The translations under genes and the position numbers were made by a program. The notes below the pieces were generated by a model, which was not told the origin of the DNA, made no database searches, and saw only the letters and a program-made list of their open reading frames with translations. A stretch of 27,523 nucleotides of DNA from Candidatus Hodarchaeota archaeon (GTDB lineage Archaea > Asgardarchaeota > Heimdallarchaeia > Hodarchaeales > Hodarchaeaceae): positions 1-27,523 of the forward strand of contig JAEOTQ010000138.1 in assembly GCA_016839785.1 (NCBI GenBank), read 5' to 3'. Below are positions 4,465-27,523 of the stretch, piece after piece; the first letter of the stretch is position 1, and the number at the start of each line of letters is the position of its first letter.

Positions 4465-5016
4465 TTAGTTCTCGATAAGAAGTTTCCCCAAAGCAACAAA
4501 AGGATCGTAGTTATTTTGTCGGTTAATGGCTGAAGCTTGAATATAAGGAGTAATTAAACCAGTCATTGATGAAATATGATTAGCGAATTCTTGTGCTTCT
4601 TGATGAGATACAGTTTCTTCGCTTGATTCTAATAGATCTATTTTATTTCCTACTAATACAAGGGGAATTATTCCTGTTTGGTCTAGGATTTCCTCTAGCC
4701 AAGAAGAAAGATTTGTAAATGATTCCCTTCTTGTGATATCAAAAACTAATATGACTCCGTCACTCCTATTGTAGAACTGAGGGCGAATCATTTTGAACGT
4801 TTGTTGACCAGATAAATCCCAAATTTGGTATGTTAATTCCGTTGAATCCAAAGTAAAAATTTTACGACCAATATCGACTCCCATAGTCGGCTTATAGCCC
4901 TCAAGAAATGCGCTATCTTCATCTAGAAATGTTTTCACAAAAGTAGTTTTGCCTACTGCGAAATCTCCGCAGATAACAACTTTGTACGTCTCATTAGTAG
5001 ACATTGGATGTGCCAA
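4465..5016 (-). CDS. Rab/Ras-like small GTPase (eukaryotic-signature type)
   Basis: G1 GDFAVGKT, G2 YKPTMGVD, G3 WDLSGQ, G4 GNKID, G5 ASA. No C-terminal Cys prenylation motif. The start may be the ATG at 5004 rather than the TTG at 5016. Confidence 0.93.
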   Translation of the reverse strand: MAHPMSTNETYKVVICGDFAVGKTTFVKTFLDEDSAFLEGYKPTMGVDIGRKIFTLDSTELTYQIWDLSGQQTFKMIRPQFYNRSDGVILVFDITRRESFTNLSSWLEEILDQTGIIPLVLVGNKIDLLESSEETVSHQEAQEFANHISSMTGLITPYIQASAINRQNNYDPFVALGKLLIEN

Positions 5017-19372: not shown

Positions 19373-20281
19373 TTATTTCCCAGGACATAAGGGTTTGTTA
19401 CTAATTAAGAGCTCTGGATTTTTATTCCGAGTGTTGTTCATATCATTATATGTATTATATCCTAAGATATGGAATTGACTGAAGACCTCTCTGACAGTAG
19501 GAGTATCTCGATTCGATAATAACCAGTGCAATGAAAGATCTGATAAAAGCTCTTTTAACAAATAGATGTCTATTTGATTGAATTTTTTTCCATACAACGA
19601 TCCTTTCTGAGCAACATCATAATAAGGGGGATCCAAATAAAGGAAAGATCCATTTTTCTCTTCATTTCTAGATAATGAACCTATTATGTCTTCATAACCA
19701 AAATTAGTAATTTTTACCCTTTTTTCCTGAAAAATCCTATAGATAATATGCCAAATACTCGGTTTATTCTCATACCACTTTCGGTGAGCTTTTGCATTAC
19801 TATAACCACCTCCAGCTCCATTAGGGGAGCAATTAAGAATAACTAATCTCCTTATCGCGCGTTCTAAAGTTGTTGCTGGGTTTGACTCTTTCCATTGATA
19901 ATAATCATCCTTTTCGATAGGTTCTAATGATTTGACAAATTCTATGAGTTTCTCTAATAACGAAAAGTCGTTTAAACAGGATAAAAGCGCAAATATTTCA
20001 GGATCTTTATCATTTAACCAAACTTGTGATACTCGTGGAGATATTGTAATGAATACATTACCTAAACCCGCAAAAGGTTCCACAAAATAATGAATTTTCT
20101 TCGGAATCGATAAGTATAGTGGGAGATGTTTTTTCTTATCACTCTTGCCTCCAGGAAAACTAGCAATGGTGGTACGTTTTGGAAAAAACAGTTGTTCATC
20201 AGATAAAGTTGAATTATCAGACCTTTTTTCCACATTTATAGACTCCAATCTTAGGTCGAGAATAGGAATACTATGGTGCAA
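19373..20281 (-). CDS. DNA N6-adenine methyltransferase, Dam/D12 class
   Basis: FPGGKS, FVEPFAG (motif I), LNDKD, YLDPPYY (motif IV), WLLSN and ELLISN. The start is uncertain and could be an internal GTG near 20233. Confidence 0.88.
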   Translation of the reverse strand: MHHSIPILDLRLESINVEKRSDNSTLSDEQLFFPKRTTIASFPGGKSDKKKHLPLYLSIPKKIHYFVEPFAGLGNVFITISPRVSQVWLNDKDPEIFALLSCLNDFSLLEKLIEFVKSLEPIEKDDYYQWKESNPATTLERAIRRLVILNCSPNGAGGGYSNAKAHRKWYENKPSIWHIIYRIFQEKRVKITNFGYEDIIGSLSRNEEKNGSFLYLDPPYYDVAQKGSLYGKKFNQIDIYLLKELLSDLSLHWLLSNRDTPTVREVFSQFHILGYNTYNDMNNTRNKNPELLISNKPLCPGK

Positions 20282-20285
20282 ATTA

Positions 20286-20735
20286 TCAAGTAAAATTCAC
20301 CTTTATATTCTTAAATTTATCTTCTAGGCCAGTTGTAAATTGACTGAACTGTTTTAATTCCTCAATTTCATTAATTCTAACTGCACGGAAAAATTGATAC
20401 AAAAGTTGTCTGGGATATGGATCAATAACTCCATGACCTTTACGTTTCTGAAGTTCTGCCTTCATTCCACTCCACATATGCCTCCCCTCTTTATCAAAAT
20501 CCAAAAGTAATATGATCACTTGAAAAGAGTAAATTTGATCTGCAATACTGGTCAATGAAATACCTTTTCTTGCCAGTATCTTACCTTGGATTAGTTTGAT
20601 ACCTATTGCATCCAAAGCTTCAATGTCTCGGTTTCCTTCGACTACTAGAACAACAGGTTCAGTGATCGTGTTACAATATTTAATAAAATGAAGCAATAAA
20701 TCCAGAGGGACTTTAGTGGACGGTTTCATTTTCAT
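20286..20735 (-). CDS. Stand-alone TOPRIM-domain protein (small primase-like/RNase M5-like)
   Basis: VLVVEGNRDIEAL and ILLLDFDKEGR give the E and DxD motifs; ends with EIEEL. Confidence 0.85.
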   Translation of the reverse strand: MKMKPSTKVPLDLLLHFIKYCNTITEPVVLVVEGNRDIEALDAIGIKLIQGKILARKGISLTSIADQIYSFQVIILLLDFDKEGRHMWSGMKAELQKRKGHGVIDPYPRQLLYQFFRAVRINEIEELKQFSQFTTGLEDKFKNIKVNFT

Positions 20736-20743
20736 TAAAATAT

Positions 20744-22267
20744 TTATTCCCTGGCTAGAAGCATACCCTCTATAGTGACTGGTAAATCTCCCTTAGTTAA
20801 TTCAGCTTGTGCTGCTGTTAGTTTCGTATCATTAGACGCGTGTAACGTAAACAAAGGCTCACCCCGTTTAACAGAATCTTTCTTTTTATGGAAATATATC
20901 CCAGCACGTTTATCCATAGGAGCTCCAGCGGCACGCGCAGCTCGTCCTATCACTTTATTATTAATTTCAACAACGTAACCACTTTGAGGAGCTAAATAAT
21001 CATATGTTGCTGATCCTACTTCAATATCTTCGGGCTTCAGGTTTGAATCAGCATTTTGGGCTCCAATTATTTCCTGGAATTTTTGATAGGCCTTTCCTGA
21101 ATTCAAAATATCATATGCCATTTCTTGGCCAGAACCGACAATTGCTTTTCCAGCCATTTCTAAGAGAATTCCTGCTAAGGAGGTACTTTTTCCAACTAAG
21201 GAATGAGGAGCCTCTAAAGGATGCATTAAGCTAGTTAATGCTTCTCGAGCTTCTAAAGCGGGGCCGATGGCGTTACCAACAGGTGAACTACCATAAGTTA
21301 TACCACTTTCAATACGAATTCCCACTAAACGACCCAATTCAGCAAACCGATGAGCGATACGTTTACCATCATCTAAATTGGGAACTTTTGTACCGTACCC
21401 AGTGGGAATGTCTAAAACAAGAAATTTCACTCCCATAGCGACTTTTTTGGAAATTACAGAAGCCATCATCATTGGCTCAGGGTCAATGCCTAGAGGGTAC
21501 TGAACATCACGGATGATTTTTTCGTCAGCTGGAACAATATTTAAACCACCAGTCCAAGCTACTAGCCCCCCAACGTTATGGGCAATATCTACCATTTCAT
21601 CAATGGTGAATTCAATGTCACATCCAAGAGCTTCCATAGTATCCGCTGTTCCAGAGGGACTAGTGATAGCACGTGAGGAAGTTTTTGGGATAGTCAACCC
21701 AACAGCAGCGATTATAGGAACAACAAGGAGCGTAACCTTATTTCCTGGAACTCCACCTAAAGAATGTTTATCGAAAATTACTGTTTCGCCCCAATTAATC
21801 ATTTGCCCTGAGTGAGCCATTGCATTGGTGAGACATTCAATCTCTCCAATACTCCACTCTTGAAGCATTTGGGAGGTAAGAAATACAGACACTTCAAGGG
21901 GGGTCATATTGTCGAGAGTGATGTCACTAATAATCTGGTCTATTTCATTCTTTGTGAACATTCTGCCAGGTTGAGCTATTCGCTGTTTAATAATCGAAAA
22001 ACTTTTTGATATCGTTCTCCCGATTGATTGTAGTTTCACCATCTCGCCTTCTGCTACACCAAGCTTATTCATCATAACTTGTGACAGAGCTATTTCATTT
22101 TCTTCCAAAAAACATTTTAATTTGAAAACTTGCCCAACTTTTTCTTCTGTCCCTTTAAAAGATAATATAAACTTTGCTTGTGTAACTATTTGCTGATTAT
22201 TATTAGTTGAAATGATTACGGTATCTCTTGGATCAATTTTTGATGTTACTACTTTGAATTCTGGCAT
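20744..22267 (-). CDS. AMP (nucleoside 5'-monophosphate) phosphorylase, thymidine phosphorylase family
   Basis: DKHSLGGVPGNKVT, PKTSSRAITSPSGTADTME and ARAAGAP, with an N-terminal extension of about 80 aa typical of archaeal AMP phosphorylase. AGGTGA RBS. Confidence 0.93.
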   Translation of the reverse strand: MPEFKVVTSKIDPRDTVIISTNNNQQIVTQAKFILSFKGTEEKVGQVFKLKCFLEENEIALSQVMMNKLGVAEGEMVKLQSIGRTISKSFSIIKQRIAQPGRMFTKNEIDQIISDITLDNMTPLEVSVFLTSQMLQEWSIGEIECLTNAMAHSGQMINWGETVIFDKHSLGGVPGNKVTLLVVPIIAAVGLTIPKTSSRAITSPSGTADTMEALGCDIEFTIDEMVDIAHNVGGLVAWTGGLNIVPADEKIIRDVQYPLGIDPEPMMMASVISKKVAMGVKFLVLDIPTGYGTKVPNLDDGKRIAHRFAELGRLVGIRIESGITYGSSPVGNAIGPALEAREALTSLMHPLEAPHSLVGKSTSLAGILLEMAGKAIVGSGQEMAYDILNSGKAYQKFQEIIGAQNADSNLKPEDIEVGSATYDYLAPQSGYVVEINNKVIGRAARAAGAPMDKRAGIYFHKKKDSVKRGEPLFTLHASNDTKLTAAQAELTKGDLPVTIEGMLLARE

Positions 22268-22514: not shown

Positions 22515-23804
22515 TTATTCCTCTGGTTCTTTCTTCATTTTGACAACCATTTGAAAATTCTGAGCTAGTGAATCATAAAAATCGATCAATGTCTCTAAAT
22601 CATCTGCCATCAAGCTACCCCCACGACCCATTTCACCAATTTTACGTAACATTAACCGATCCGCTTCACCTAAACCAATTGCATAGAGGACTACTTCTGG
22701 GTATTGTTCGACATGTTGCTTTACAATTGGAATGGGGTTTACTCCAAGTCCATTTCCCTTATTGGGGTTGCCATCGGTTAGAACAATAATCATTGTAGGA
22801 TTCTTCTTCTGAATTGTAGGATTATCGTCGAAGTTGTCAATGCTTTTGTATGCTTGGTCGAGTGCTCCACTCAAAAACGTTAAACCAGTGCTTTCTGCGG
22901 TTTTTTGGACAACATGATCAATTATACTTTCAATTCCTGCTTTTTTTGTCTCACCAACACAAGAGATGACATTTGAATCTCCGAGGGTGTATTTCTCCAC
23001 CTCACCTGAGAAAGTCACTAACTGAATTTGCTCACCCCATCCTTTAGCAATCTTAAGTGACATGAATAACATTATAGCCATAGCAGCGGCATCAACCCTG
23101 GACACTTTCTTCCCATCCTGAAATTTCTCAATGAACAGATTCAACTCATCTGATTCATCTAAACCTTTCTTTAATCCTTCTAATGCACCACTAATATTTT
23201 TAACTTTCATATCCTTTTTTGACATACTTCCTGATACATCAAGGACTAAAACAGCGTTGAAACTCATCTCAGTAAATGGAATGATGTTAATTTCCACTTC
23301 CCGCCCAGTTGGATCAACAATTCCGATATCTTCATCAGGAATCGGGGGGTCTGCTCCAAGAAATCTTACAGTTAGATTTCCAATTGGGCAATCTTCCCAA
23401 GCAATTTGCAGATTGTTGAATACGGGACGGTTTTTGAGCAATGTTGACAACTGTTCAAATTCAGTTGCGATCCACAAGATAGCTTCTTCAACTTCTTGTC
23501 CTGCAAGAGGCTCTATACCTAGTTTAATCGATTTAATACCTGCTGTAGCTTTAACTGCTTCAACTTCGACTGCATCCCCATCGGAAATGTTCGCTGAAGA
23601 GAGAACACTACCATCTACCGCAATTGTTCCCTGTTCCACTTCATCCGAAGAAAGAATTTGCACAGCACCCCAATCCTCCCATTCTGTAACCATTTTAACA
23701 TAATCGAATTCATTAATGGCTAGTTTTTCAATATCAAGAGTGTGGAGATAAGCTCTCCCTTCAATATTTCCTACATTTACAACATTCAGCGGAATTTTGG
23801 TCAT
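22515..23804 (-). CDS. Cdc48/p97 N-domain (double-psi barrel plus CDC48_2-like subdomain) fused to a vWA domain; no AAA ATPase
   Basis: GRAYLHTLDIEKLAINEFDYV...GTIAVDGSVLSSANISDGDAVEVE and LKNRPV...RFLGADP follow the Cdc48 N-domain pattern. The vWA MIDAS is present: LVLDVSGSM, TGLT, IIVLTDG, plus YAIGLG. AAGGAG RBS. Confidence 0.82.
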   Translation of the reverse strand: MTKIPLNVVNVGNIEGRAYLHTLDIEKLAINEFDYVKMVTEWEDWGAVQILSSDEVEQGTIAVDGSVLSSANISDGDAVEVEAVKATAGIKSIKLGIEPLAGQEVEEAILWIATEFEQLSTLLKNRPVFNNLQIAWEDCPIGNLTVRFLGADPPIPDEDIGIVDPTGREVEINIIPFTEMSFNAVLVLDVSGSMSKKDMKVKNISGALEGLKKGLDESDELNLFIEKFQDGKKVSRVDAAAMAIMLFMSLKIAKGWGEQIQLVTFSGEVEKYTLGDSNVISCVGETKKAGIESIIDHVVQKTAESTGLTFLSGALDQAYKSIDNFDDNPTIQKKNPTMIIVLTDGNPNKGNGLGVNPIPIVKQHVEQYPEVVLYAIGLGEADRLMLRKIGEMGRGGSLMADDLETLIDFYDSLAQNFQMVVKMKKEPEE

Positions 23805-23909: not shown

Positions 23910-26900
23910 TTATAAATCCAAGTTCTTTCTTTTTTCGAAAGTAGATTTCGTAGTTAATCCGTACACCCCGATTGGCTCGGATAATAAGTGCATTGGAAGA
24001 ATACCTTTTTCAGTACGGATTTGAGCATCAAAGATTAAGTATCCACACTTTTTGGGTGTTTTAAATTTTACAGTCGGTGCACTAAACTCATCCCCTTTAT
24101 CTATATACCGTTTTAATTGTAAACTGGTTAATTTTTTTGTCTCACCTTGAGGGAAAGTGTTTACATATATTGCGATACTAACAGGTGGAAGAGATCTAAG
24201 AAAATGAAATACAAAATCAACAGCATAATGAGTTTTTGGTTCTACACCCTGCCACAAATCATTTTTTGATCCAGCCCGCGTAACAAATGACCAATCAACC
24301 ACTATTTCGCGCAAAACAGGAACATGTATACTTTTAAAAGCTCTATTTTTCTTTAAAAGTCCTGTGGTTATACGGGCTAGAATATAGAAGGAACTATGCT
24401 GATAATCTATTGATAAATCAATACTTCGTGCGAATTCAAATGAGGCACGTGGTTTTAGAGTAAATTTTTCTTCATAAATTACGATAGGTGTTGAGGAAGC
24501 CTGTGTAGCCAATAATAATGTTAGATCTCCCCTTTCTTCTTTCTTTGAATCATTGGTTGCTTTGTAAATGCACTCTACAGATCCAAAATTACTCGTGATA
24601 TAGAATTCTTTAGGCGAAATACTAATTTCATCTTTACGCTCAACTGTAAAGACAAAATTTTTTGGTAATAATCGATGATTTGTAGAAGTGACTGCTTCTA
24701 CTCGAAGCTTTAACTTCCCATATAATTCTCCTAAACTGATAGAACAAGGGATTCTAACCATTTGACGCTTTTCAAGTCTTGAAATATCCACAAACGTCCT
24801 TAAAGTGGCTATTTCATTATTTGTTTGATTATCATAAAATCTCAGTGTTATTGGGTTGTTGCGGAATTGATACATGACTTTTTTAATATCGCTAAATGAG
24901 AATTCAATATAGCCAAATAACTCGGGACCAGATATTAGTGCTGGAAAGACCGCAGTCTGCTTTTTTGGAAAAGGTTTGAACTTAGACTCTTCTTCTTTGA
25001 GATGTTCTCGGAAGAACACGACTCGCTTTGCTTCTATTTCCTGGCGTCGTGTACGCATGATATTTGCAATTTTGGAATTAATTTTTTGGTACTTCGGTTC
25101 AATCTCAATCATAGGTGAATAGATTTCGAGATCCTCATTTTCATCAAATGCAGAAATCACCTGTTTTTCTTCTACTTTTACCACTTGTTGTGGTATAGTC
25201 ACTGGTTCTTTCTTTGCAGCTTTTGGTTTAGCTCCAACTTCTACAGGCTTTTTAGGTTTTGGAGATTCAGGTGGTTTTGTTTTTTTACTTGGAACTTTTT
25301 TCTTGGGTGGAGTTTTTCTTGGAACTACAGCAGGTTCTTTTTTTGGTATTTCTGTAACAGGTTTCTCTTTAGGAGCCACAGGTTTCTTTTTCTTTCGTTT
25401 TTTAGGTATCGGGCTTGGTGTACTCTTAAATTCCTGCCGTGTTGCAATATCTTGTTTTAGGAGTTGGGTTAAGTTCTGTTGTTGTTCATCAACCTCTATA
25501 AAAGAGTCAGGAGGATTTTCAACAAGGAACGAAGAAAAATCACCTGCAACCTGAGGAGGATAGGTGAGTTTTTCGGTGTAATACACTTCTTTAAGAAATT
25601 CATTCATATTTTGACCTTTGTCTGTATAGAGAGAGAAAAGATAATCACATACTGAAAATGGGGGAGCAAATTTTTTCGATCCTAAGACTGGTAGAAGGAT
25701 TTGGTCTAAATATGCGGAGTTAAATTCCAGTAATTCGTCTTCGATGTAAATTAGTAAAGCTAACACTGAATGCATTAATTTGGAAGCTTTAACTCCATTT
25801 TCAATATCGTAATTATAAAACCAAGCAAATTCTCCTGTTAGATTCTCATCCCTGGTAAATTGGGCTAATAGTCCAAATTGAACAGCTTTTCTGCGATTTT
25901 CGTACAAGCTCAGGGAAGATACCGTCGGTACTGGTTTTTTTTGTTTAATTAACTCTTTTGTTTTTTGAGCGAGGGCTTGTATCAGTAATACCATAGCTAA
26001 TCGATTTTCCCTCCAAGGTTGTGCATCAAAAAATCTGAGCTCTATAGTCGAGTAATCTGTATAAGGAAAAAGATCAATCATTCGATCTTCAGGTGGAACT
26101 TTCTTTATTGCACGGGCAAAGTCTTCTCGTGTGGTCATATCATCTATAATAGGTAAATATTGAGGAATATTTGGTCCCATTTGGCCCGTATTATTAGCTA
26201 GTCGATATGAATGAATTCCCCTACTGATTACTTGTTTTTTCCCATCTTTTTCCTTAACAATTATTTTACCGCTGGGTTTTTGATTGAGAAAAGGAGAGGT
26301 AGAACTTAATGCAATTAAATGTGGAATGTAGTTCCGAAGCATATTGTACACAGGTGCTCGAAAAAATGAAGGGATTCCAATATGATGATGTTCCCCACAT
26401 GTTAAACCACTCCGTACCCGTTTTTCCATGGGATTTAAACCTATAGGTAATAGAGTAAATTTGTTTTTTACTTTTGATAAGCCATGTGCGGCAGCTGCGT
26501 ACAGAGAATCAATCCAAAATGCAATTTCTTCAAGATACTCACAGGGAGGGGTCACTAATTCCAATAACCAAGTTATTTGGGATATATTAGGGTCAGGGCC
26601 AAATACATTGACTCGTACCGTTCTTTTACCTAACCGATAATGAATAAAAATGAAGTTTAACCGTTTTTCCCTTTTTATTTCTTCAGTTACTTCAATCTTG
26701 ACGATTTTTTTTGCGATTGTCTTTGGGGTGTGTTTTGCTTTTTTCAAACGTTCAAGGTACTTAGCTGCTTCAGCAAACATCTCGTCCCATGTACTTAACA
26801 ATTCATTTCCTACAAGTACCTCTCCTGTAGCAATATCCACAAGGTGATTTTCAACTTCAATCCCATGGGAGAAGAATAATGGGGTCTCCAATAAATAGTC

Positions 26901-26921
26901 TTTAAGTTCCATTTTTTTCAC
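23910..26921 (-). CDS. GCS2/YbdK-family carboxylate-amine (glutamate-cysteine ligase-like) ligase fused to a Lys/Pro-rich linker and C-terminal beta-sandwich-like domains
   Basis: GIEVENHLVD, LELVTPPC, TCGEHHHIG, LIALSSTSPF and TIELRFFDAQ. Low-complexity linker at about aa 497-575 and beta-rich C-terminal ~340 aa. The start is GTG 26921 or ATG 26912. Confidence 0.85.
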   Translation of the reverse strand: MKKMELKDYLLETPLFFSHGIEVENHLVDIATGEVLVGNELLSTWDEMFAEAAKYLERLKKAKHTPKTIAKKIVKIEVTEEIKREKRLNFIFIHYRLGKRTVRVNVFGPDPNISQITWLLELVTPPCEYLEEIAFWIDSLYAAAAHGLSKVKNKFTLLPIGLNPMEKRVRSGLTCGEHHHIGIPSFFRAPVYNMLRNYIPHLIALSSTSPFLNQKPSGKIIVKEKDGKKQVISRGIHSYRLANNTGQMGPNIPQYLPIIDDMTTREDFARAIKKVPPEDRMIDLFPYTDYSTIELRFFDAQPWRENRLAMVLLIQALAQKTKELIKQKKPVPTVSSLSLYENRRKAVQFGLLAQFTRDENLTGEFAWFYNYDIENGVKASKLMHSVLALLIYIEDELLEFNSAYLDQILLPVLGSKKFAPPFSVCDYLFSLYTDKGQNMNEFLKEVYYTEKLTYPPQVAGDFSSFLVENPPDSFIEVDEQQQNLTQLLKQDIATRQEFKSTPSPIPKKRKKKKPVAPKEKPVTEIPKKEPAVVPRKTPPKKKVPSKKTKPPESPKPKKPVEVGAKPKAAKKEPVTIPQQVVKVEEKQVISAFDENEDLEIYSPMIEIEPKYQKINSKIANIMRTRRQEIEAKRVVFFREHLKEEESKFKPFPKKQTAVFPALISGPELFGYIEFSFSDIKKVMYQFRNNPITLRFYDNQTNNEIATLRTFVDISRLEKRQMVRIPCSISLGELYGKLKLRVEAVTSTNHRLLPKNFVFTVERKDEISISPKEFYITSNFGSVECIYKATNDSKKEERGDLTLLLATQASSTPIVIYEEKFTLKPRASFEFARSIDLSIDYQHSSFYILARITTGLLKKNRAFKSIHVPVLREIVVDWSFVTRAGSKNDLWQGVEPKTHYAVDFVFHFLRSLPPVSIAIYVNTFPQGETKKLTSLQLKRYIDKGDEFSAPTVKFKTPKKCGYLIFDAQIRTEKGILPMHLLSEPIGVYGLTTKSTFEKRKNLDL

Positions 26922-27523
26922 TCTTGTGCCAATAATTCAGTTAGTTTAGCATGTAGTTTCTCCAAGGATAGTTTTTTTGCTCTTTTCAAAGATTTTTGAG
27001 TTGAAAAAAGAGGGAAAATACAATGCTCATTATAGTTAACCTCATGGATAGACTGATGAACAGATTGAAGTAGGATTTCTTGTAGATTGGTTGTTTCATA
27101 GATAATAAATGAAATTTTTGATGATTCTTTGCCCAGAGTGAGTATTTGGACTACTTGGTTCTTATTATTGTCATATCCCAAATCTATTCTCAGGTAGTTT
27201 CCATCAGTGGTTATGAATTTCTTTAGAAATTGGAGAAAAATATCCTTAGGAACCTTATACTTGAGTTGAGAGGTTTTACTGGTTATTTTATTCCATGCGA
27301 CTGGGATTAAGTCTAATGCGTTAGCCCCTAAGATTTTAAATGCAATATTGAGAGGATTCTTCTCTGTGTACTTCTCAAGTAGCATTGTACGAAAGATTTT
27401 TGAAAATAGGAATGCTATTACATCTGTAGCTTGTAGAACACTAAAATAATTATGATCTGTTCCAAATAAGAGTTTATCCTCCCAATTTGGAACGTCCATT
27501 ACATGGTTAAAGAAGACTTCGAC
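26918..27523 (-). CDS. Amidohydrolase-superfamily (TIM-barrel, Amidohydro_2-like) protein, C-terminal part with an extra C-terminal region; 5' end truncated by the window
   Basis: The frame is open to the window edge (VEVFFNHV-MDVP...). DKLLFGTD and KILGANALDLI match the strand-8 FGTD and terminal GxNA motifs. The stop overlaps the ligase GTG (GTGA). Confidence 0.7.
   Translation of the reverse strand, partial: VEVFFNHVMDVPNWEDKLLFGTDHNYFSVLQATDVIAFLFSKIFRTMLLEKYTEKNPLNIAFKILGANALDLIPVAWNKITSKTSQLKYKVPKDIFLQFLKKFITTDGNYLRIDLGYDNNKNQVVQILTLGKESSKISFIIYETTNLQEILLQSVHQSIHEVNYNEHCIFPLFSTQKSLKRAKKLSLEKLHAKLTELLAQE

Follow-up and report, generated by a model that had tools for sequence, protein, structure and literature searches.

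The 27,523-nucleotide stretch considered here (hereafter the window) is an entire 27.5-kb contig (C96 in our sample) from the genome of Candidatus Hodarchaeota archaeon, a 4.04-Mb assembly that is 84.5% complete. Three genes lie on its reverse strand toward one end and encode, respectively, a protein in which a predicted N domain of the Cdc48/p97 type is followed by a von Willebrand factor type A (vWA) domain, a carboxylate-amine ligase of the GCS2/YbdK type and a metal hydrolase of the Amidohydro_2 type (Table 1). The first of these proteins, called Cdc48N-vWA below, is the subject of this report, and we propose that it may serve as the docking subunit of a module formed with the other two. 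Its open reading frame (ORF) is a real gene and not a product of chance, since a word-indexed search returned 86 homologous clusters at E ≤ 1e-3, with source labels nearly all from Asgard archaea, and a profile of its family matched 182 of the 301 genomes sampled from the phylum. Locus (L0xx), protein (P0xxx) and family (f1-f33) labels are sample labels of this analysis.

Table 1. Positions in the window of the Cdc48N-vWA gene, its predicted parts and the two adjoining genes (aa, amino acids)
Feature	Position	Strand	Basis
Cdc48N-vWA gene, P0001, 429 aa	22515..23804	-	ATG-start ORF and translation; Pfam; homologues; structure model
Predicted N-domain subdomain 1, double-psi beta-barrel, aa ~1-90	23535..23804	-	CDC48_N match and VIA fold matches
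Predicted N-domain subdomain 2, second barrel of Cdc48 N type, aa ~91-177	23274..23534	-	Whole-domain fold matches
vWA domain, aa 178-422	22539..23273	-	Pfam and VIA
MIDAS motif DVSGS, aa 189-193	23226..23240	-	Regular expression and conservation
Insert after DxSxS, aa ~196-235 (strand, two helices, strand)	23100..23219	-	Secondary structure of the model; VWA_2 alignment
MIDAS Thr309 (GLT)	22878..22880	-	Conservation
MIDAS Asp344 (TDG)	22773..22775	-	Conservation
Flexible tail KMKKEPEE, final residue Glu	22518..22538	-	Low model pLDDT
GCS2/YbdK-type carboxylate-amine ligase, 1003 aa, long C-terminal extension	23910..26921	-	Pfam, NCBIfam, synteny
Amidohydro_2-type metal hydrolase, C-terminal part only (contig end)	26918..27523	-	Full-length orthologues elsewhere

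An earlier note on this DNA, made from the letters alone, had read residues 1-177 as a two-subdomain N domain of the Cdc48/VAT pattern. The profile search recommended in that note was borne out for VWA and VWA_2, which exceed their cut-offs, and not for the N domain: Pfam CDC48_N (PF02359) aligns with residues 15-85 (E 1.3e-5) at 25.7 bits, or 28.6 bits in a genome-wide search, under its cut-off of 35.1, and neither CDC48_2 nor UFD1 is listed for the protein at E ≤ 1. A profile of seven N domains compared by hhalign with the four Cdc48 N domains of the same genome reached a probability of 81.8% (E 1.1e-5, columns 4-136). The full-length AlphaFold2 model, computed from an alignment of 27 sequences, has a mean predicted local distance difference test score (pLDDT) of 86.1 and a predicted template modelling score (pTM) of 0.84; residues 1-180 modelled alone reached 84.4 and 0.75, with the remaining four models at only 59-68. 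In VIA comparisons, the N-domain model superposes best on the N domain of CDC48A (Z 16.1, root-mean-square deviation (rmsd) 3.1, 166 of 182 residues aligned), followed by those of PEX1 (Z 15.8), NSF (14.5), VAT (14.1) and Sec18 (13.8), and by UFD1 (13.3, 160 residues aligned). Such whole-domain matches cover model residues 2-179 and thus both subdomains, and the Foldseek comparison that had also been recommended gives template modelling (TM) scores of 0.74/0.77 and an rmsd of 3.5 against the isolated N domain of p97. Residues 1-177 are accordingly predicted by these models to form a two-subdomain N domain of the Cdc48/p97 type. The region does model as a double-psi barrel plus a second subdomain, and the observation of the earlier note stands because the N-terminal model matches complete two-subdomain N domains; its remark that the same fold occurs in the ATPase-free Ufd1 is equally upheld.

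The first subdomain taken alone (residues 2-85) superposes on the VAT barrel (7dbo_B, Z 13.2, rmsd 1.7) and on the N domain of AMP phosphorylase (4ga5_B, Z 14.4, rmsd 1.4). The next gene downstream (20744-22267, minus strand) itself encodes an AMP phosphorylase (TIGR03327, 542.8 bits) with an N-terminal barrel that is also of the double-psi type, and TIGR03327 weakly matches residues 8-105 of Cdc48N-vWA (E 4.6e-4). A recent duplication from the N domain of this neighbour was considered and set aside: the barrels superpose, yet the profile comparison gave a probability of only 3.8%, so that a recent shared origin is unsupported. Sequence searches of solved structures with the protein, and then with the profile of its 27 homologues, returned weak vWA matches together with two other weak ones, to subunit D of formylmethanofuran dehydrogenase (0.032) and to AMP phosphorylase (0.12). 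Beyond the AMP phosphorylase gene, positions 19373-20735 (minus strand) encode a D12-class N6-adenine DNA methyltransferase and a small Toprim-domain protein, in an order that is kept in loci L002 and L003.

The C-terminal part of the protein is recognized by two Pfam vWA profiles, both above their curated cut-offs: VWA_2 (PF13519; E 7.9e-9, 36.5 bits against 27) and VWA (PF00092; E 2.1e-8, 35.1 bits against 23.8). The corresponding part of the model superposes on 4fx5 (Z 21.7, rmsd 2.3, 182 residues aligned, model residues 104-417) and on other solved vWA domains, namely those of TFIIH p44 (Z ~21), ArnB (8s05_B, Z 20.1, 24% identity), Sec24 (Z 19.0) and Rpn10 (5ln1_A, Z 18.7). Residues 178-422 are thus predicted to adopt the alpha/beta vWA fold. 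The metal ion-dependent adhesion site (MIDAS) of this domain is complete and conserved in the aligned sequences, with its DxSxS, Thr and Asp elements. DVSGS at residues 189-193 is the sole DxSxS of the protein by regular expression, and D189, S191, S193, T309 and D344 are invariant across the 27 homologues (set A1). Among 29 distant sequences with identities down to 20% (set A4), D189, S191 and D344 are still invariant, while S193 and T309 are retained in at least 90%. The vWA domain with an intact MIDAS that the earlier note had placed from residue 189 onward is thereby confirmed.

Between the DxSxS motif and the first vWA helix (residues 236-254), the model contains an insert of a short strand, two helices and a strand, which is spanned by the VWA_2 alignment of 161 protein residues onto 105 profile positions. 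The insert had been foreseen, at about 35 residues; the model puts it at about 40. An EF-hand within it was considered and rejected: matches to parvalbumin reached E 0.019-0.08 with the acidic residues off the loop positions, which amounts to helix-loop-helix noise. As the earlier note had also remarked, no Walker motif was found: the Walker A pattern G/AxxxxGK[ST] is absent from the 429 residues by regular expression, and no AAA domain was matched by Pfam in the protein, whose chain stops at residue 429. The same holds for its relatives, since none of the 42 that were scanned, including forms of 700-960 residues, carries an AAA domain.

By source label, Cdc48N-vWA is essentially an Asgard protein. 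An exhaustive search of representatives of 1.84 billion proteins returned 93 clusters at E ≤ 1e-3, of which 77 also passed 1e-10 and 21 passed 1e-30. Close homologues are labelled Hodarchaeales and Heimdallarchaeota; distant members are labelled Odin-, Thor-, Hel-, Heimdall- and Promethearchaeota, with one labelled Korarchaeota. Non-Asgard labels in the word-indexed search were single rows from Zixibacteria and Bathyarchaeia. The phylum-wide matches mentioned above were counted at E ≤ 1e-10 and amount to about 60% of the sampled Asgard genomes, in which the protein is kept along with the ligase and the hydrolase. Of the 90 high-quality genomes, 65 were matched, and genomes hold one to five copies. 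Some families, such as f3 (0/29), yielded no match to the profile. The ESM Atlas returned vWA clusters only, and a scan of metagenome contigs one unrelated vWA locus. Our literature searches found no paper on the protein or on the module, for which the supplementary tables of Asgard gene-family papers may nonetheless hold an entry; both domains are well known, but we found them combined in no other publication.

Several relatives differ in architecture or context. Long forms of 720-765 residues (L062, 11352-12741; L063, L064 and L065) carry an extra N-terminal barrel with weak Molydop_binding matches and adjoin a 129-residue Roadblock/LC7 gene and a gene for a protein of 279-323 residues, one of which has a weak gelsolin match (E 0.016). 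The distant member at L010 (56-1147, 29% identity) follows a double-zinc-ribbon protein, an arrangement that recalls the zinc-ribbon and vWA pairing of ArnA and ArnB. The C-terminal tails are frequently acidic. Of 81 full-length members, 33 terminate in E, 18 in Y and 10 in D; in one clade the tail is polyacidic and closes with -[DE][DE]Y, which calls to mind the tails of tubulin. The window protein itself ends in KKEPEE, with pLDDT below 50 at residues 425-429. These tails are a lead only, as the sequences are related.

The ligase gene, upstream on the same strand, matches Pfam GCS2 (E 1.8e-7) and an NCBIfam carboxylate-amine ligase model (E 7.7e-18, under its cut-off), and its ORF overlaps that of the truncated hydrolase by 4 nt. 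Full-length hydrolase orthologues of 466-482 residues lie upstream of the ligase in L002, L003, L004 and L006, all of which show the order hydrolase-ligase-vWA, and L005 is a ligase-vWA pair at a contig start. Pfam Amidohydro_2 matches relatives of the hydrolase at 5.1e-9 to 1.5e-18, and none of the metal ligands D18/H20/H22, K170, H172, H235 and D288 varies among 16 sequences. For neither enzyme was a solved-structure relative found at E ≤ 0.1. More distant loci are rearranged: in L007 (48% identity), 6-7 kb separate the vWA gene from those of the ligase and the hydrolase, and in L008 (43% identity) the ligase gene is 1 kb downstream. Twenty further regions were then taken from eight families. 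In 18 of 24 loci of our choice, the ligase gene was found within about 10 kb of the vWA gene, and the hydrolase gene usually adjoins the vWA gene directly.

The distributions of the two genes point in the same direction. Over the same 301 genomes, the ligase profile matched 168, compared with 182 for the vWA profile, and the family-level distributions are nearly identical. Given as genomes with the vWA gene and with the ligase gene, the counts are 15/20 and 15/20 in f1, 11/11 and 11/11 in f7, 68/76 and 62/76 in f11, 5/5 and 5/5 in f12, 61/68 and 61/68 in f14, 6/6 and 6/6 in f23, 7/7 and 4/7 in f27, and 0/29 for the ligase as for the vWA protein in f3. Ten families hold both genes, f10, f28 and f29 among them, and four genomes of the window's own genus are devoid of either. 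Moreover, at four loci of f11, proteins of 873-899 residues consist of a hydrolase-like half and a Cdc48N-vWA half. Although they are degenerate copies, these fusions argue that the vWA protein and the hydrolase work side by side.

The enzymes show some peculiarities of their own. Over the C-terminal ~190 residues of the hydrolase (26918-27499), the window sequence is 39% identical to that of L002 and 64% identical to that of L003, while the vWA proteins of these two loci are 96-97% identical to that of the window; the hydrolase tail thus evolves much faster. In the ligase (23910-26921), a central stretch at residues ~500-600 is rich in lysine and proline, and the roughly 400 residues after it match no Pfam family; the ligase frames of f14 are only ~550-590 residues long.

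Given that the protein combines the two folds with a conserved and intact MIDAS and no nucleotide-binding motif, that its gene is co-located with those of the two enzymes and matches the ligase gene in distribution, and that fusions with the hydrolase exist, we favor, with a probability of about 0.5, the reading that Cdc48N-vWA is a non-enzymatic, ATPase-less and MIDAS-dependent docking subunit of an undescribed Asgard module that also comprises the GCS2/YbdK-type ligase and the Amidohydro_2 hydrolase. As happens in integrin I domains and when the MIDAS of Rea1 binds ubiquitin-like (UBL) domains, the metal held by the MIDAS would grip a partner or substrate by an acidic side chain or a carboxylate, and the groove of the Cdc48-type N domain could hold a peptide or a ubiquitin-like fold. 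Together, the N domain and the MIDAS may position a protein for the ligase, which would form an amide bond on it, and the hydrolase would remove that bond. For the binding of UBL domains by Rea1-MIDAS, a precedent is described in one report (PMC6624252).

Several observations weigh against this proposal. No ligase gene lies within reach of the vWA gene in six of the 24 loci (L009, L053, L056 and L062-L064), and the two loci in which the protein is fused to a ubiquitin-like domain hold neither the ligase nor the hydrolase. Because the genomes are related and the loci were of our own choosing, the counts of loci and genomes describe a pattern and do not constitute a test. The hydrolase fusions are degenerate: DxHxH, DxSxS and TDG are missing from all four, while stand-alone proteins keep DxSxS in 15 of 15 vWA proteins and DxHxH in five of five hydrolases, so that the fusions reflect an association of degenerate copies and not an active pair. 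Finally, GCS2 enzymes of known activity make small molecules, and the substrate could therefore be a metabolite.

According to one alternative explanation, Cdc48N-vWA would be a general vWA scaffold and its link with the ligase and the hydrolase merely an inherited gene order, as could be expected from the many loci that come from related genomes, from the loci that lack the ligase and from the paralogues at L053 and L056, which stand without it. We consider this very doubtful, since the linkage outlasts rearrangement, with another order and strand in L007, L008, L052-L058 and L065, and the matching family-level distributions and the existence of fused hydrolase-vWA copies are equally at odds with it. 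Another proposal, made in the earlier note, saw in the protein a Ufd1-like stand-alone adaptor or decoy for an AAA+ unfoldase of the Cdc48/VAT or MoxR kind. The stand-alone and ATPase-less nature of the protein is confirmed across its relatives, its N domain has the fold of Cdc48 and Ufd1, the genome encodes four Cdc48 and four MoxR genes, and vWA proteins often pair with MoxR ATPases. The link with an AAA+ machine, however, found no echo in the gene context: all eight of these genes are on other contigs, UFD1 gave no Pfam match at E ≤ 1, and a BLAST comparison of the Cdc48 and MoxR proteins of the genome with 470 neighbouring ORFs from 27 loci recovered a single Cdc48-type ATPase, at L053, and no MoxR protein. 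With one ORF matched among 470, the adaptor or decoy reading is without support from context and appears improbable. A third possibility retains the two enzymes and assigns the vWA protein a different part in a protein-tagging or tail-editing system: the linkage made by the ligase between a protein carboxylate and an amine would be undone by the amidohydrolase, with Cdc48N-vWA as carrier or reader. Candidates for this carboxylate are the Glu (or Glu-Tyr) that ends the flexible acidic tail of Cdc48N-vWA itself and, in the fused forms, the exposed Gly of the ubiquitin-like domain. The presence of acidic tails next to a carboxylate-amine ligase suggests this scheme, which we regard as quite unlikely; if true, tail editing would represent a third, independent route to signalling like that of ubiquitin and Pup or of tubulin tails, in archaeal relatives of eukaryotes.

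A role as receptor or carrier in a ubiquitin-like conjugation system, with a ubiquitin-like fold docking on the N domain or the MIDAS as it does on Ufd1, Rpn10 and Rea1-MIDAS, is unlikely as well, while being the least improbable of the alternatives. Four relatives (P0083, P0084, P0089 and P0090) have a C-terminal ubiquitin-family domain that closes with LIPAS[TH]AG followed by 0-5 residues, an ending with the pattern of a processed, conjugatable ubiquitin-like protein, and P0166 has an N-terminal YukD-type ubiquitin-like domain. The neighbours of the fused gene at L077 (3851-9949) include a small ubiquitin-domain protein, a ThiF/E1-like protein (3e-58), a JAB/MPN protein (6.2e-14) and a RING-like protein, and the E1-like and RING-like neighbours recur at L076 (2213-7338). 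Against this, full-length fused forms were found in two of 400 genomes, both of family f33, and the RING-like matches are below threshold. The window protein itself lacks such a domain, and no ubiquitin-system gene is present in the window, so that the tie to ubiquitin-like proteins anticipated in the earlier note applies to one lineage and not to the protein for which it was suggested. The last alternative, and the least probable of all, would make Cdc48N-vWA a prokaryotic counterpart of the scaffold formed by the N-terminal domain (NTD) and the SABA domain of DEPDC5/Iml1, acting as a proto-GATOR1 alongside a small GTPase and proteins of the longin or Roadblock kind. In Foldseek, the full model aligns with GATOR1-KICSTOR and yeast SEA chains at E 2.4e-11 to 1.1e-10 (query TM score (TMq) 0.32-0.36, rmsd 9.5-11, 434-455 columns). 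The best DEPDC5 chain is 9o5a_B (E 2.4e-11, TMq 0.36, rmsd 10.5, 434 columns), with Sea1 chain 8ae6_W at E 1.0e-10; the match to p97 N-D1 has an E of 7e-12 with an rmsd of ~22. The N-domain model also superposes on DEPDC5 residues 3-166 (9o5a_B, Z 12.2; 9xzy_H, labelled 'DEPDC5 dimer', Z 11.0), a review likens the NTD to the N domain of Sec18/NSF and SABA to a Sec23 domain (PMC8534245), and the long forms of f14 and f27 adjoin a Roadblock/LC7 gene. Judging from the models, an N domain followed by a vWA/SABA-like domain may thus be a layout common to Cdc48N-vWA and the front part of DEPDC5. Common descent is nevertheless not established, because Pfam IML1 (PF12257) finds nothing in the whole genome at E ≤ 10, the domains are closer to Cdc48-type N domains (Z 16.1 compared with 12.2) and to vWA domains, DEPDC5 is absent among the best 50 rigid VIA matches of the full model (all Z ≥ 16.5) and the conserved neighbours, a ligase and a hydrolase, are not GTPase regulators or longins, with Roadblock genes beside the f14 and f27 long forms only. 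In addition, the protein ends after the vWA domain and is devoid of SHEN, DEP (no Pfam match) and C-terminal domain (CTD) parts. A Ras-family small GTPase is encoded elsewhere in the window (4465-5016, minus strand; Pfam Ras 6.9e-39), 17.5 kb from the vWA gene, and no link between the two was seen. As for DEPDC5 or GATOR1 components in Asgard archaea, the papers found that discuss them report only NPRL2-like longins, and our searches found no paper on an Iml1 homologue.

Several known systems resemble Cdc48N-vWA in part. With the N domains of Cdc48/p97/VAT, NSF and PEX1 it shares the two-subdomain fold (Z 16.1 for CDC48A, 14.1 for VAT, 14.5 for NSF and 15.8 for PEX1), whereas the AAA+ rings and the Walker A motif of the Cdc48/p97 ATPases are missing and the CDC48_N score stays below the cut-off. 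N domains of this type usually serve an AAA+ motor, which Cdc48N-vWA lacks. Ufd1 likewise combines this fold (Z 13.3 over 160 residues) with the absence of an ATPase, but in Cdc48N-vWA the vWA domain replaces the C-terminal part of Ufd1, no UFD1 match was obtained and the gene has no linkage with Npl4 or Cdc48 genes, Cdc48 being unlinked in 26 of 27 loci. With Rpn10, TFIIH p44, ArnB and Rea1/midasin the common denominator is the vWA fold, for which Cdc48N-vWA has all MIDAS residues; the N-terminal partner domain differs, and the ~40-residue insert after DxSxS sets the archaeal protein apart. No ubiquitin-interacting motif (UIM), zinc finger or ArnB-type C-terminal part was detected in it by Pfam at E ≤ 1, a search in which short UIMs are easily missed.

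At the level of the module, the likenesses are mere analogies, with PafA and Dop, which act in the Pup system, and with the tubulin tyrosination cycle: in each case a carboxylate-amine ligase is paired with a hydrolase, and the acidic tails of Cdc48N-vWA proteins end in Glu or Tyr. PafA and Dop belong to what we take to be the same ligase superfamily as the GCS2-type ligase. Should the module turn out to edit or tag proteins, the archaea closest to eukaryotes would possess a post-translational system not described before.

Finally, the earlier note had considered this protein relevant to the origin of the p97 and proteasome cofactors of eukaryotes. Such relevance found no support here; the nearest eukaryotic two-domain layout is that of DEPDC5/Iml1 (Sea1), of GATOR1/SEACIT, and not that of Ufd1 or Rpn10. 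The likeness lies in what appears to be the same domain order and in the similar size of the NTD and SABA part; the differences are that Cdc48N-vWA keeps the full MIDAS, has no SHEN, DEP or CTD and no IML1 match, and has a ligase and a hydrolase as neighbours. Apart from Cdc48N-vWA, no prokaryotic protein type encountered in this analysis has its domains in the order of the DEPDC5/Iml1 front half. The review cited above states that the domain composition of DEPDC5 occurs in no other protein (PMC8534245). Although descent is not established, the origin of the DEPDC5 nutrient-signalling scaffold thus becomes a testable question.

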